Made by a program: the position numbers and the translations under genes | Source: a virus | Lineage: Duplodnaviria > Heunggongvirae > Uroviricota > Caudoviricetes | Virus record (IMG/VR): IMGVR_UViG_2568526722_000005 | Reading direction: 5' to 3' (one strand) | Length of the DNA stretch: 32,531 nucleotides | Notes under the pieces: model-generated | What the model saw: the letters and a program-made list of their open reading frames with translations, nothing else | Told to the model about the DNA's origin: nothing | Databases searched by the model: none | Shown: positions 3,753 to 27,780 of the stretch, one piece after another | Layout: each line of letters begins with the position of its first letter | How positions within the stretch are numbered: position 1 is the first letter of the stretch

Positions 3753-4074
3753 AACGCACACCTCCGGAAATACCTTCCCCAAGATGCATCAGTTCTTCGT
3801 CCGTTCGCTCCGGTATCCCGTTCTCTTCCGGTAAAAGGCTGAAATCAGCCACCGCAGCATCACTGCTACCGGACACCATTCTCACGATCAATGCCTTCAG
3901 CGAGGCAAACTGCGCATCCATCCACACATCACTGAAGCTCTGCATCCGGAAATAATCGCCCCACTCACCAAGCTCAGTGGCCGACATTTCCGACAGCATC
4001 CGCCGCCAGTCTGCCCGCCTGAACTCCCGGGCAAGCCGCATGACAAACTGCATTTCCCGCGTCAGGACTTTTCC
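3724..4074 (-). CDS. T: Tail assembly chaperone T segment, expressed as G-T fusion by -1 frameshift near the end of G
   Basis: ORF in the -1 frame relative to G, overlapping its 3' end; reading through the GGAAAAG run (4068..4074, minus strand) in -1 gives ...VLTREMQFVMRLAREF..., continuous with this ORF. Conserved lambda G/GT arrangement. Confidence 0.75.
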   Translation of the reverse strand, partial: GKVLTREMQFVMRLAREFRRADWRRMLSEMSATELGEWGDYFRMQSFSDVWMDAQFASLKALIVRMVSGSSDAAVADFSLLPEENGIPERTDEELMHLGEGISGGVRYGPDSQPGH

Positions 4075-4448
4075 GGCGTCAGCACCTCATGCTCCAAATC
4101 CCCGGCATTCTCAATGGCTCCCATACCGCTCAGCGACAGAACCATCTCCGCCCCCGCTCCCAGGGCATCATACGACCATGTTGTAATAACGGATGCGCAA
4201 AGCGTCTCAACATCCTGAGACTGTTCCGCATTCCACAGTGAGCGGGAAACCAGCCAGGCATTGATATCCATCCCCATCCGCAGAAAAGCAATCTGTCGTT
4301 CAGCCTCCGGCAGTTCTCCCTCTTCGGCATCAAACTTTGCCGTTCGCTGCTGAACAAACGCCAGATATTCAATTCTCTGCAGCCCGGACAGCTCACTGAG
4401 CACCACGGACTGCTTTTCATAATTAAACGTGCCCTGTTTCAGAAACAT
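4062..4448 (-). CDS. G: Tail assembly chaperone G (lambda gpG-like)
   Basis: ORF starting MFLKQGTFNYEKQSVVLSELSGLQRIEYLAF..., similar to lambda G (MFLKTESF...TLSELSALQRIEHLAL); sits between V and T/H. Confidence 0.85.
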   Translation of the reverse strand: MFLKQGTFNYEKQSVVLSELSGLQRIEYLAFVQQRTAKFDAEEGELPEAERQIAFLRMGMDINAWLVSRSLWNAEQSQDVETLCASVITTWSYDALGAGAEMVLSLSGMGAIENAGDLEHEVLTPEKS

Positions 4449-14960: not shown

Positions 14961-15166
14961 TTCATTTTCACTTTCTTAAATCTAACGACAGACGGCTAAC
15001 ATTTAAGTATTGTGAAATATTATCAAATGTAATCATCATTGATTTACAAAAGATACATTTTGCCCCGAAAGGATTCCTGTCAGAAACATCAAAAGATGAT
15101 GTTCTATACTGAGAACCATGGCAACACGGGCATCTAAAGTGAATATGGTTTGTAATATTTTCTACC

Positions 15167-15382
15167 TCAAAGTGCCACAACATGAACAGCCGCGGGGCCT
15201 TTAGGTCCGTTCTCAATACCAAATTCGACTTCCTGATTCTCAGTTAACGTTTTGAAATCGTTGCTCTGAATAGCTGAGAAATGGACAAACACATCTTTGC
15301 TACCATCTTTCGGCGTGATGAAACCAAAACCTTTTTCAGGGTTAAACCATTTCACTAAACCAGTCATTTTGTTAGACATCAT
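15167..15382 (-). CDS. Cold-shock protein, CspA family (CspB/CspI-like), prophage-borne
   Basis: [70 protein letters not shown] contains the RNP1/RNP2 motifs (KGFGFI, VFVHF); about 350 nt AT-rich upstream region consistent with a long csp 5' UTR. Confidence 0.9.
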
Positions 15383-15741
15383 TATTACCTTTTGAAGAAG
15401 TTAGCCCTTGGGCAGAATGGTCCGAAAAAAATATCAGAGAGAAAAACCAACAAGGAAATCTCAAGAGGTACAAATAATAAAATTATAACAATGACTGCTT
15501 CAGATAATTTTGTAACAAACCAGAACACCATTAACGCATGATTAACCAACCATAGCAAGGATTACTTTTGTAAAGAAAAACACACGAATGAAACAATAGC
15601 TTTATTTATTAATAAAACGTGTCATTCTGTCTAATGACCTTTTATCTTACCCTTAAGATTTCAAGGATTTTGACTCATGGAAGAGTCCTTTTTATTTAAA
15701 TTTCACATTCAGCGCTAAAAATAATCCGATTTAATATTAAT

Positions 15742-16769
<1,028 letters not shown>

Positions 16770-16896
16770 GGATATTTATCAGGATTTATCAGTTTCTAAT
16801 CTCTAGATATGTTAAGCACTCAGCCCGTCAGTGGTGGATACTGGCGTGTGTAATAAAGGGGGGATGGCTGATTACCTCTGATAAGGGAATGTAACT

Positions 16897-17193
16897 ATGA
16901 ACGGTATAGATCCATTCAAACCAATCAGTAAGCAACTTGATGTGGTATTACCACAACTGACAAAACACAACGACCTTCTGGATAAAGTGTTGCCTTTTTA
17001 TATTGCTGTTACCGCAAAATTATCAGGTAAAACTCGAGAAGAGGTTCTCAAATATAACATGCTGGCTTTAGAAACAATTTTTGGCTCAGAAAAAGCGGGA
17101 AAATCACCCAAAGAGCTGGCAGAATCTCAATTTGCTTATATGACAAATATAAGAGTATCCGAAATCTTTGATAAGCTACCAGACATTGAATAA
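16897..17193 (+). CDS. Hypothetical 98-aa protein; opposite-strand moron inside the lysis cassette
   Basis: AT-rich ORF convergent with the lysis genes, followed by its own intrinsic terminator; no similarity I recognise. Confidence 0.5.
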   Translation: MNGIDPFKPISKQLDVVLPQLTKHNDLLDKVLPFYIAVTAKLSGKTREEVLKYNMLALETIFGSEKAGKSPKELAESQFAYMTNIRVSEIFDKLPDIE

Positions 17194-17200
17194 TTTCTAA

Positions 17201-17228
17201 GCGGCAGTAATGCCGCTTTATATTTTTT
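17201..17228 (+). terminator. Intrinsic terminator for the 98-aa moron ORF
   Basis: GCGGCA-GTAA-TGCCGC followed by TTTATATTTTTT directly after the ORF stop. Confidence 0.55.
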
Positions 17229-17436
17229 CAGCCAAATCTCTCAAGAACTGTTTGGCATGTTTTACCGCAGTAACTTCATAATAATCCAAACCAGCTCCTT
17301 CAAGTCGCTCAAGGTTGATGTTCAGATCAAAAATTTCACCGGCAAAACGTTCTTTGTCCTGTAACGTTAAGATTACCGTAACTTTATTCTCAAAATTGCG
17401 GGTCCCTTTCACAATCAGTTCATAGTTTTTAGTCAT
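17218..17436 (-). CDS. Small conserved protein between holin and endolysin (YdfR-like by position)
   Basis: 72-aa ORF 4 nt downstream of the holin stop, same strand; occupies the position of ydfR in the K-12 Qin lysis cassette. Confidence 0.45.
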   Translation of the reverse strand: MTKNYELIVKGTRNFENKVTVILTLQDKERFAGEIFDLNINLERLEGAGLDYYEVTAVKHAKQFLRDLAEKI

Positions 17437-17440
17437 TGTC

Positions 17441-17656
17441 TTACTCTCCTCTCGCAGCCTTACGCCTGTCTTCTTTAATCTTGAAATAAAGGTTTGTCAG
17501 ATACGTCAGCATGCCAAATACCAGACTACCCAATACACCTATTGCCGCCCACTGTGAGGGTGTGACTTTATCGAGCAACTGTAAAAACCAGTAGCCAGCA
17601 CTGCCTGCAGAGGTGCTGTAGGCGATGCCCGTTGTTAACTTATCCATGGATTTCAT
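17441..17656 (-). CDS. Class II holin of phage 21 S type (pinholin) with dual-start motif
   Basis: 71 aa, [71 protein letters not shown], near-identical to S21 as I recall it; M-K-S-M gives the antiholin/holin start pair. Confidence 0.9.
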
Positions 17657-17937
17657 AGCCTCACCTCCGCAGATAACGGATGGTGTACACGGTTTGGTTC
17701 GAAGAAGGAAAGAAAGTAGGAAAGTTCTTTAAGTGATCGGTCGTACTCATCTATCTTTCATACTTACTCTCAACTATCAAAAGTACAGGATTTATTATGA
17801 AGTTATGGCCTGTGTTGACTGGCATTGCACTCTCTTTCACTCTTATAGCATGTAAGGCCCCGACACCACCTAAAGGTGTGCAGCCGATTACAAATTTTGA
17901 CGCCAACTGATCCTACCCACGTAATATGGACACAGGC

Positions 17938-18804
17938 CTAAGCGAGGTTCTTGTTTTCAAATTGTTCCGGACTGAGGCCGCCACACCAACTGTGCCGCCG
18001 CCACCGATTGTAATCACATTCGATATAATTAAACACCGTTGCCCGCATTATTTCCCGGCTGATAAAGTGTTCTCCATGGATACATTCCACTTTCAGCGAA
18101 TGAAAGAAGCTTTCCACGCAGGCATTATCGTAGCAGCAACCTTTTGCGCTCATACTTCCACGCAGATTATGCCGCTTCAGTTGCGCCTGATAATCTGCTG
18201 AACAGTACTGGCCTCCACGGTCCGTGTGAACGATAACGTTCCGGGGCCTCTTACGCCGCCACAGCGCCATCTGCAGGGCATCGCAGGCCAGTTGCGCCGT
18301 CATGCGTGGCGACATTGACCAGCCAATAACGGCACGTGACCACAGGTCAATGACCACTGCCAGATACAGCCAGCCTTCATCTGTACGTAAGTACGTGATG
18401 TCTCCTGCCCACTTCTGGTTCGGGCCACTGGCGTAAAAATCCTGCTCCAACAGATTTTCTGACACAGGCAGGCCGTGTGCGCGGTAGCTGACCGGGCTGA
18501 ACTTCCGGGAGGCCTTTGCCCTCAGTCCCTGACGGCGCAGGCTTGCCGCCACGGTTTTTACGTTAAAGGGGTAACCCTGAGCACGCAGTTCATCCGTCAG
18601 GCGTGGGGCACCGTAACGCTGTTTTGACCGGGTAAAAGCCGCGAGGACAACGCTGTCGCAGTGTTGGCGGAACTGCTGACGCGTGCTTATCCTTGTCCGC
18701 CGCTGACACCACGTATACCAGCCGCTGCGGGCCACCCGGAGCACGCGGCACATTGCTTTGATGCTGAACTCAGCCTGATGTTTTTCAATAAAGACATACT
18801 TCAT
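17938..18804 (-). CDS. insF: IS3 transposase OrfB (InsF)
   Basis: 288-aa [35 protein letters not shown]... recognised as IS3 InsF, with the DDE integrase-like core. Confidence 0.95.
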
Positions 18805-19100
18805 TTCAGGCGCTTCGCGAAGTATGTCGCGGCCTTTTGGAGGATAGCCAGCTCTTCATCCCGTTCTGCCAGCTGGCGTTTGAGACGTGCAATCTCGGTA
18901 GACATCTCCAGTTCACGTTCAGAAGACGTCTGCTGATTTTGCTGTTTACTGCGCCAGTTGTAGAGTTGTGATTCATACAGGCTGAGTTCACGGGCTGCGG
19001 CAGTAACACCGATGCGTTCAGCAAGCTTCAGGGCTTCACTGCGAAATTCAGGCGAATGCTGTTTACGGGGTTTTTTACTGGTTGATACTGTTTTTGTCAT
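18801..19100 (-). CDS. insE: IS3 OrfA (InsE), HTH protein; overlaps OrfB for frameshift fusion
   Basis: [53 protein letters not shown]... recognised as IS3 InsE. Confidence 0.9.
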
Positions 19101-19610
19101 GTGAGTCACCTCTGACTGAGAGTTTACTCACTTAGCCGCGTGTCCACTATTGCTGGGTAAGATCAAACCGCTACCTCGGAAAATGGTATGAAATAGCTCG
19201 CCTCGAGAACTGGTTCGAACGTGGTCTGGAACAGGTCAGCGCTACTTATGAAAAACGGAACGACGGAGGGATTCGCGTACTTAACCGTGGATACGATCCA
19301 ACGAAAAACAAATGGAGCGAGAGCGAAGGTAAAGCATACTTTACTGGAGATACTAAAACTGCAGCGTTGAAAGTTTCGTTTTTTGGCCCCTTCTATGGTG
19401 GCTATAATGTAATCAAGCTGGATGATGAGTATAAGTATGCTCTTGTCAGTGGTCCGAACAGAGAATACCTATGGATTCTGGCAAGGACCCAAACTATTCC
19501 AGATAATGTAAAAGCAGACTATGTGCGTACCGCTCAAAAGTTGGGATTCAATGTCAATGAACTATTATGGGTTAAACAATAAAATCCCCACCCGAAATGA
19601 TACTTATTAG

Positions 19611-21996: not shown

Positions 21997-22152
21997 TTAC
22001 TCCTCAGGTTCGTAAGCTGTGAAGACAGCGACCTCCGTCTGGCCGGTTCGGATTCGTACCTCGCAGAGGTCTTTCCTCGTTACCAGTGCCGTCACTATGA
22101 CGGTTAAACAGATGACGATCAGGGCGATTAACATCGCCTTTTGCTGCTTCAT
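21997..22152 (-). CDS. hokD: Hok/Gef-family membrane toxin (HokD/RelF-like), 51 aa
   Basis: MKQQKAMLIALIVICLTVIVTALVTRKDLCEVRIRTGQTEVAVFTAYEPEE matches K-12 HokD as I recall it; AGGAGAAG Shine-Dalgarno; the longer ORF to 22209 is an in-frame upstream extension. Confidence 0.9.
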   Translation of the reverse strand: MKQQKAMLIALIVICLTVIVTALVTRKDLCEVRIRTGQTEVAVFTAYEPEE

Positions 22153-22409
22153 AGCCTGCTTCTCCTTGCCTTTCGGCACGTAAGAGGCTAACCTACATGT
22201 GTCTAGCATGAAATTGGCCTCAGATTAATGTTAAGCGTCTTGCAGGACGCGTAATGTTAACTGGGGCTTTTCTCTACCTGCCGTTGGTGTTCGTGCCCGA
22301 GGCAGATAGCCTCAAGCACCCGCAGTCATTCTACTTAACTAAGATTTCCCCGCAAACCGTTTTGTCCAGCACAGTAAATATCCAACTAAACCAATGGAGT
22401 TCGCTGTAT

Positions 22410-27723: not shown

Positions 27724-27780
27724 TTTCTGGTGACGTTTGGCGGTATCAGTTTTACTCCGTGACTGCTCTGCCGCCGTTTT
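27724..27780 (+). ncRNA. dicF: DicF small regulatory RNA
   Basis: TTTCTGGTGACGTTTGGCGGTATCAGTTTTACTCCGTGACTGCTCTGCCGCC followed by GTTTTT matches the K-12 DicF sRNA as I recall it; located between the ydfABC-like genes and dicB as in Qin; preceded by a highly structured region. Confidence 0.85.

Follow-up and report, generated by a model that had tools for sequence, protein, structure and literature searches.

Here we report a small gene cassette in the late operon of a lambdoid prophage of E. coli (Caudoviricetes; IMG/VR record IMGVR_UViG_2568526722_000005), which is represented by a stretch of DNA of 32,531 nucleotides (nt), referred to here as the window. Between the holin and endolysin genes of the window, an open reading frame (ORF) encoding 98 amino acids (aa) runs against the late strand; it is preceded by a promoter-like region and a structured RNA leader, and it converges on a late-strand ORF of 72 aa. 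At least 24 unrelated small ORFs carry the same putative promoter-leader head, and the 98-aa gene moves together with its convergent partner among late-region positions of enterobacterial lambdoid prophages. We read the region as a mobile moron cassette within a Q-dependent late operon, the cargo of which would be expressed from the lysogen in a noncontiguous operon resembling that of Tab and anti-Tab, and assign this reading a probability of about 0.55. The moron kind is known; what stands out here is the conserved, structured and apparently undescribed leader, which marks a large family of interchangeable small-gene cassettes.

The cassette comprises the following features (window positions; the late strand is the - strand).

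16786-16813 (+): promoter-like region, read from the sequence, with a -35-like TTATCA (16786-16791), a 16-nt spacer and a -10-like TATGTT (16808-16813)
16818-16905 (+): full extent of the leader in the match to covariance model R1 (box A, P2, linker, P3, Shine-Dalgarno sequence and AUG; 75.5 bits, E 2.6e-18, with the window sequence contained in the seed of the model)
16820-16825 (+): box A, UCAGCC, the predicted 5' end of the transcript and the exact complement of the P3 loop (proposed helix P1)
16826-16846 (+): leader hairpin P2, 8 bp, CGUCAGUG / UACUGGCG, loop GUGGA
16858-16879 (+): leader hairpin P3, GGGGG / CCUCU, with the conserved loop GAUGGCUGAUUA (GGCUGA at 16866-16871)
16884-16889 (+): Shine-Dalgarno sequence AAGGGA, with the start codon AUG at 16897
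16897-17193 (+): 98-aa ORF, opposite to the late strand, between the 72-aa ORF and the endolysin gene
17199-17228 (+): hairpin and U-run resembling an intrinsic terminator, the predicted end of the 98-aa transcript
17218-17436 (-): late-strand partner of 72 aa, a short protein of the DUF1327/YdfR family (beta-beta-beta-alpha)

The most unusual feature of the region, the conserved structured leader (16820-16896), had gone unnoticed in the initial annotation, which was made from the sequence alone. In an alignment of 61 distinct leaders, compensatory changes were found in seven of the eight pairs of P2, where 96.7% of the cells are paired, and in four of the six pairs of P3, whose loop contains an invariant UGGCUG. 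Over the whole alignment 92.9% of the cells pair, compared with 28-49% when the 3' partners are slid by one to three columns. Double-sided changes affect 11 pairs, and the covariation score is 0.236 versus 0.145 in shuffles (0 of 500 as high). G.U wobbles of the leader hairpins occur on the + strand only. The comparison shows that compensatory changes maintain both predicted hairpins, i.e. that selection acts on RNA structure, and such compensated helices on the transcribed strand are what is generally expected of a structured cis-regulatory leader. The conservation covers the ~110 nt upstream of the gene (16786-16896) and extends across loci in which the proteins are ~60% identical and synonymous sites are saturated. 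Model R1 detected a single leader copy in the window and scored 5.6 bits at the same place on the - strand. Rfam 15 contains no family at the leader: the leader region of the window gave chance-level matches only (E 2-9, below gathering), and no match at E <= 0.1 was obtained on the leader in eight homologous loci.

The first retrieval of leaders from IMG/VR required TCAGCCC and ATGGCTGAT, and the invariance of both in alignment A9 is therefore built in; the retrieval was repeated via P2 only. In 67 of the 75 leaders retrieved via P2 alone, GGCTGA was located 17-24 nt past P2 (4% expected by chance), and the loop variants were single changes at the ends of the helix. In 12 leaders retrieved via the protein only, box A was invariant except for a single A-to-G substitution, which still allows a G.U pair. 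Of 130 distinct homologous upstream regions, 100 have a TAnnnT hexamer at positions -12 to -7 from the T of TCAGCC, and the RNA is therefore predicted to begin precisely with box A; a -35-like GTTRCT box is located 16 nt upstream of the -10-like hexamer in these regions.

The box A:P3-loop helix is predicted by RNAalifold, and single-sequence folds alternate between box A paired with the P3 loop and a formed P3. The ensemble energies with either helix enforced differ by a median of -1.3 kcal/mol, a small gap that fits two competing folds. The leader probably sets the stability or translation of the mRNA via these competing folds, and a 5' end held in a helix would shield the mRNA from 5'-end-dependent decay. 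The primary transcripts of hok and tisB are inert, with a 5' end locked by long-range pairing, and they need 5'-end processing. The window leader resembles them in having a 5' end that is complementary to an internal element and two near iso-energetic folds; unlike them, it heads a cargo other than a small membrane toxin, shows no evident gene for a dedicated antisense RNA, and has a long-range helix that lacks covariation. A further-reaching view, which we regard as possible but rather doubtful, is that the leader represents a new class of cis-regulatory RNA, a two-state switch heading a large, interchangeable arsenal of small proteins of Enterobacterales prophages. The leader would then hold the payload off, or at a low level, until it is flipped by a signal such as phage infection, the action of RNase E, processing of the 5' end, or the DUF1327 partner, and the conserved promoter-leader and the conserved start of the late-strand partner would flank a hypervariable payload.

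A variant leader was observed in locus L039 (E. coli TB4328, ~1490-1596), with a box A of UCACCC, no GGCUGA loop, and GGUGA within the ribosome-binding site; in this single case the 5' end may pair directly with the Shine-Dalgarno region, as a compensated variant. Several other readings of the leader were rejected. A six-codon mini-ORF within P3 (AUG GCU GAU UAC CUC UGA, 16865-16882) is probably incidental, since other leaders (L010, L012) preserve neither its start codon nor its frame. CsrA sites (GGA in the P3 loop and in the Shine-Dalgarno sequence) are not general, as the loop GGA is absent in L010 and L012, and a sigma-54 promoter was dismissed because the GG/GC spacing is off and unconserved. 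The anti-sRNAs AgvB and AsxR (Tree et al. 2014) are not the same element, as they occupy a different site downstream of pR' and have no Rfam match at the leader.

The distribution of the head was assessed with blastn, using either the window module or, separately, the consensus leader; each search found 222-238 of 5426 complete E. coli genomes, and the leader matches were unannotated. The full arrangement with the 98-aa ORF is present in 57-58 of the 5426 genomes and, among deposited phages, only in Escherichia phage Evi (LR597642); ~180 further E. coli genomes match the leader part only. Other cargos of the leader in E. coli are opposite-strand ORFs of 95, 79, 86, 104 and 48 aa and a DUF1883 protein, which occupy the same lysis slot or lie upstream of holins. 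A census that combined two IMG/VR pattern scans with the earlier loci, the counts of which are lower bounds, yielded at least 152 leader instances with at least 87 distinct cargo proteins in at least 24 BLAST clusters. Among the matches listed, cargo lengths range from 48 to 210 aa (median 81), profile comparison finds most cargo clusters mutually unrelated, and the Pfam assignments are limited to DUF1883, a single retropepsin-like protein and a single zinc ribbon; the ORFs flanking the leader-cargo units are mostly on the other strand (331 vs 128).

Among known phages, the head was found in HK022, ES18, HK633, mEp213, mEp043, SPN3UB and others. The HK022 copy heads gp23 ('srb protein; moron gene product') and is flanked by gpI-like and gpJ-like tail genes; the ES18 copy heads gp25 ('possible moron'), and the gene convergent with gp25, gp24, encodes a DUF1327 protein. 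Both belong to the same cassette family as the window, with heads that are 84-85% identical and a gene running against tail genes, but they occupy other positions and their cargos (73 aa for gp23, 95 aa for gp25) are unrelated to the 98-aa family by BLAST. The window gene is thus one of a family of cassettes for which the name moron has been in use since 2000. Neither record names a function, the moron of ES18 being annotated as 'function unknown', and a search of the literature on srb and HK022, DUF1883 and the ES18 morons retrieved no functional data and no mention of a shared leader. The moron of Juhala et al. in 2000 is said to be extra DNA of different base composition that has its own promoter and a factor-independent terminator and is expressed from the repressed prophage. 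In the window, G+C is 0.35-0.38 over 16900-17300 and ~0.50 in the holin and endolysin genes, and the same arrangement of holin, ydfR and endolysin without the 98-aa gene is very common in E. coli prophages (Qin) and is present in mEp460, which identifies the gene as extra DNA.

A head that is far more conserved than any cargo and common to unrelated ORFs could also be a trans-acting small RNA, as a whole or as a processed 5' fragment of the leader, or a recombination handle that, together with the conserved partner start, provides homology arms for the swapping of cassettes; in either case the ORFs would be interchangeable passengers. The conserved start MTLEQRVEALEK on the partner side would suit such a handle, as would a clean deletion of 311 bp in mEp460 relative to strain NC101 (L002 1789-1850 vs L037 2501-2811). 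This deletion took the promoter, the leader and most of a different opposite-strand cargo ORF of 79 aa, of which the last ~45 nt remain; apparently empty sites may therefore be decayed cassettes. We nevertheless consider this explanation unlikely. In essentially all copies, P3 is followed shortly, and at constant spacing, by a Shine-Dalgarno sequence and a start codon, there is no terminator between leader and ORF, and the 98-aa cargo is under strong purifying selection; moreover, the compensatory changes and strand-specific G.U pairs favour selection on RNA structure over DNA homology alone.

The 98-aa ORF is a real protein-coding gene, under purifying selection with a ratio of nonsynonymous to synonymous substitution rates (dN/dS) of 0.07-0.19 where dS is not saturated. 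The protein is of the WP_001013163 type and falls into phrog_25324 (PHROG E 6.8e-61; function listed as unknown). The family is tiny, with 16 clusters among 5.8e9 proteins and six profile matches among 1.84e9 representatives, and its hosts are E. coli, Cronobacter, Serratia, Buttiauxella, Yersinia and an Escherichia species; the length is kept at 97-100 aa, with 27 invariant columns. The AlphaFold2 (AF2) model consists of four helices (predicted local distance difference test score, pLDDT, 85) without a signal peptide or membrane segment, and the protein is predicted to be cytoplasmic and soluble. The protein and its distant relatives had no match in PADLOC, Pfam or NCBIfam, no hit in the Foldseek comparison of the model with PDB and BFVD fell below an E of about 1, and searching PDB sequences with a profile yielded nothing below 0.05; the lack of a recognisable motif reported earlier thus held against these collections. 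In one metagenomic copy of the gene (L024, IMG/VR contig, ~4001-4210), a premature stop leaves 69 codons, and the 72-aa partner is intact.

The late-strand genes around the cassette are those of a lysis cassette.

17441-17656 (-): S21-type (class II) holin (PF04971, E 2.3e-34), the start of the interrupted lysis cassette
16236-16769 (-): endolysin (phage lysozyme; PF00959, E 8.3e-23), directly downstream of the module on the late strand
15742-16239 (-): Rz-like spanin

The holin is annotated as essD in the identical region of CP019271. The initial annotation had described an opposite-strand, AT-rich 98-aa ORF between holin and endolysin that is an extra, independently punctuated gene in a late lysis operon. 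The ORF is indeed present, convergent with the 72-aa ORF of the late strand, and mEp460-type cassettes that lack it bear out its character as an addition. The accompanying statement that holin and endolysin are normally near-contiguous is true only in part, because a member of the DUF1327/YdfR family commonly separates S21-type holins from endolysins, as in Qin and mEp460. For the same reason the 72-aa ORF is not simply part of an insert: it belongs to a protein family widely conserved in lysis cassettes, and it is its 3' part that travels with the 98-aa gene. This mosaic is reflected in the junctions with mEp460. The left one is sharp and falls just after the shared GGATATTTATCAGGAT beside the start codon of the endolysin, and the right one lies inside the DUF1327 gene, the 5' part of which is ~91% identical to resident ydfR genes, whereas the 3' part has diverged and ends early.

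Elsewhere the 98-aa gene occupies quite different places. The homologue in Cronobacter follows the spanin and precedes the packaging genes, that in Serratia adjoins a gpJ-like tail gene, and those in the Escherichia species and in another E. coli are flanked by tape-measure and minor-tail genes. At each of the 16 loci examined, the gene runs against the flanking late genes, and a small convergent ORF of the late strand is found 13-30 nt past its stop codon. The layout of a noncontiguous operon, i.e. an opposite-strand gene in a late operon with an adjacent small late-strand gene, was thus found in the window and in 16 of 16 homologous loci. These positions show that the 98-aa gene and its convergent partner move together within the late regions of enterobacterial lambdoid prophages. 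The 98-aa gene is rare and is not a lysis gene, and the module is not lysis-specific, as the gene also occurs in tail clusters. The proposal that it is a moron expressed from the lysogen is, on this analysis, a reasonable reading. The copies in tail clusters (HK022, L162 2465-2500; also L008, L010, L013, L026 and L030) have a strong late-strand terminator, GCCACC..GGTGGC followed by a T-run, which sits just beyond the head of the cassette and before the next late gene; the copy in the lysis cassette of the window is without it.

The strong hairpin and T-run that had been noted at the end of the 98-aa ORF were confirmed by energy, shuffles and strand orientation. The hairpin AAGCGGC-AGUAAU-GCCGCUU (17199-17218), which is followed by UAUAUUUUUU, has 8 bp, starts five bases past the stop codon and has an energy of -13.2 kcal/mol (z -3.7 vs shuffles); it was the strongest terminator-like site of the region. 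On the - strand the hairpin is followed by UUAGAAAUUA, and it is therefore oriented to stop the + strand transcript of the 98-aa gene. The U-run doubles as the final codons (E-K-I-stop) of the 72-aa ORF. In phage Evi the stem is kept although the loop differs.

The 72-aa ORF matches PF07041 at profile positions 1-72 of 93 (E 2.2e-26, 92.3 bits against a cut-off of 25); all 23 homologues found for it also carry PF07041. The AF2 model (pLDDT 80) combines three strands with one long helix. Compared with YdfR of the Qin prophage, the ORF spans residues 1-72 and lacks the C-terminal tail of 30 residues of the 103-104-aa forms; its 3' third has diverged and is passed on with the 98-aa gene. In two-hybrid assays, the fragment of YdfR that consists of residues 1-72 binds RNase G as well as the N-terminal (catalytic) half of RNase E (2026 study, PMC13232886); binding of full-length YdfR was confirmed by co-purification, and co-purifying RNA was noted (PMC13232886). 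In Cronobacter, the 98-aa gene is accompanied by the same short DUF1327 form ending in ..AEKI, and DUF1327 partners are also present in loci L030-L034. Altogether, the partner of the 98-aa family is either a short DUF1327 protein or a member of a class of 93-95 aa; homology between DUF1327 and the 93-aa class was considered and not shown (hhalign probability 0.4%).

Many partner ORFs (e.g. L050, L053, L065, L111, L118, L134) have a conserved coiled-coil start resembling MTLEQRVEALEK, and the DNA ahead of it is conserved as well; toward the C-terminus they vary, and this part often extends over the 3' end of the cargo gene, by as much as ~50 nt. With its conserved head and conserved partner start, the cassette thus varies in the middle and is conserved at both ends. 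Some cargo ORFs of 65-69 aa (L073, L146, L044, L053) resemble this partner type in their strand-rich N-termini and C-terminal helix. They carry an ..IE(K/A)xAIxxA.. motif reminiscent of DUF1327, and two of the clusters are related (hhalign, 87.8% probability).

The cassette would work as follows. A sigma-70-type promoter would start the + strand transcript at or near UCAGCC (16820); the structured leader of ~80 nt would precede the reading frame of a soluble four-helix protein, and the transcript would end at 17199-17228. In the lysogen, with the late operon silent, the promoter of the cassette itself would supply the cargo, in line with Tab of JBD26 and Tai of phi80, experimentally studied genes of this layout that are expressed from the lysogen (PMC10884400, PMC11364771). 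Once the prophage is induced, polymerase modified by Q would read through the terminator and transcribe the cargo gene in antisense, and this late read-through would both yield the 72-aa partner and damp the cargo. By analogy with Tab/anti-Tab, Tai/Ati and Tha/Ith, the cargo would act against superinfecting phages or otherwise benefit the lysogen, and the late-strand partner may protect the prophage's own lytic cycle. Within this scheme, a lysogen-expressed moron in a noncontiguous operon is likely, and the chance that the cargo is anti-phage, with the partner as its antidote, is put at roughly one in three.

The closest parallel is Tab of the Pseudomonas phage JBD26, an 83-aa moron on the minus strand that is made in the lysogen from its own promoter and blocks the tail assembly of invading phages (PMC10884400). 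Its counterpart, anti-Tab, is the product of the adjacent late-operon gene 30; the activity of Tab against tape-measure proteins and its neutralisation have been demonstrated (PMC10884400). Shared with the window are a small opposite-strand cargo with its own promoter (putative here), a convergent small gene of the late strand immediately upstream in the late direction, and a moron-class protein without a known domain. The differences are another host and phage type, the location of Tab between terminase genes, and the lack of any report of a shared structured leader for Tab. The second parallel is Tai/Ati of phi80, a noncontiguous operon under Q control that is modelled with one gene expressed in the lysogen and the other in the lytic cycle (PMC11364771). 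Here too the late operon of a lambdoid coliphage, controlled by Q, is broken by a gene of the opposite strand beside a small late-strand gene, but the coding sequence of taiEcA (PHI80_63) has 615 nt (~204 aa) and is divergent from ati, whereas the pair in the window is convergent, and there is no homology to the 98-aa or 72-aa proteins. The idea that tai of phi80 uses the same leader was rejected, as its upstream region is without box A, P2 and P3. A third system, Tha/Ith of S. aureus prophages, is also a noncontiguous operon under late control (PMC11087260).

Several observations weigh against the reading of the region as a lysogen-expressed moron cassette of this kind. The cargo has no sequence or fold similarity to Tab, Tai or the PADLOC models. 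There is no cargo-specific partner: members of the 98-aa family are paired with DUF1327 or with the unrelated-looking 93-aa class, some cargos (e.g. the HK022 gp23 type) have the terminator but no small partner, and DUF1327 genes mostly occur without an intact cargo gene alongside. The existence of two partner classes, of partnerless cargos and of DUF1327 genes that usually lack an intact cargo weakens the idea of a dedicated antidote. The putative promoter matches the consensus at 8 of 12 positions, below the threshold of 9 of 12 of a generic scan, which therefore missed it. In helix P1 (box A:loop), no compensatory change was seen, and P1 rests on conservation. Finally, the notion that the switch of the leader hides the Shine-Dalgarno sequence is unsupported as stated, the modelled accessibilities in the two folds being similar (0.46 and 0.51).

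The convergence of the two genes and the frequent overlap of their 3' ends would also fit a toxin-antitoxin (TA)-like or addiction module, post-segregational or of the abortive-infection type, built from cargo and partner or from their overlapping transcripts, with antisense control and an inactive primary transcript as in type I systems. A 5' end sequestered by a long-range helix with an alternative fold recalls the inert primary mRNAs of toxins, and the late-strand terminator just beyond the tail-locus copies suggests late-strand transcription without Q. We consider such a module improbable, since the cargos of 48-210 aa are mostly soluble-looking rather than short hydrophobic peptides, searches of Pfam, NCBIfam and PADLOC assigned neither gene to a toxin or antitoxin family, the hairpin between both genes of the window should limit transcript overlap, and the partner varies or is absent. 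The co-directional two-gene operon with a TA domain that defines type II systems is not seen either, as the genes converge and no TA domain was found.

Quite unlikely, too, is a role of the cargos as counter-defence or host-takeover factors, i.e. small proteins that inhibit host defence or host enzymes and are made constitutively from the prophage and also right after infection. Lambdoid anti-defence genes generally cluster in early operons, not against the late strand; no anti-defence family was matched, and the convergent late-strand partner would be left unexplained. These objections outweigh the points that such a role would explain: the great diversity of the cargos, their small size and their solubility are typical of phage inhibitors, the putative promoter needs no phage activator by its sequence, and the neighbouring DUF1327 family binds RNase E (PMC13232886). 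An accessory function in the lytic cycle or in lysis timing, by which the 98-aa protein would work with holin, DUF1327 protein and endolysin and its position would be functional, is very improbable: the gene does sit between holin and endolysin, DUF1327 is strongly tied to lysis cassettes and the deposited genome of phage Evi has the same arrangement, but homologues with 57-66% identity are located far from lysis genes (tape-measure/minor-tail, gpJ), the gene has a terminator of its own and is encoded on the opposite strand, it is missing from most S21-type cassettes, and the four-helix model has no signal peptide or membrane segment.

Morons and opposite-strand pairs of defence and self-immunity genes are a current theme of phage biology and have so far been found singly. 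The RNA and promoter signature described here marks at least 24 unrelated families and occurs in ~4% of complete E. coli genomes, in HK022 and in ES18. It could therefore be used to list candidate genes for lysogenic conversion or anti-phage functions systematically, and it suggests that these genes are under common post-transcriptional control. It also ties the DUF1327/YdfR family, a reported RNase E binder, to a defined genetic partner. Should the 98-aa gene be inert, the finding would reduce to one more uncharacterised moron.

The remainder of the window provides the prophage context. Rfam matches above gathering were obtained for a cspA-type thermoregulator leader (15121-15536, -) just beyond Rz, the antitoxin RNA sok of hok/sok (22147-22321, -) and DicF (27725-27776, +), which mark the window as a Qin/Rac-like lambdoid prophage. 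The region 17797-19109 holds an insertion element of the IS3 family on the - strand (orfB, 17938-18804; orfA, 18801-19109). It cuts a gene for a lipocalin/Blc-like lipoprotein after 37 codons (17797-17910, NF007786, E 6.9e-11) and is located between the Q region and the lysis genes, immediately upstream of the holin. Strain 13P460A has a prophage that is otherwise identical, but there the IS3 element is in Rz and the gene for the lipocalin is uninterrupted.

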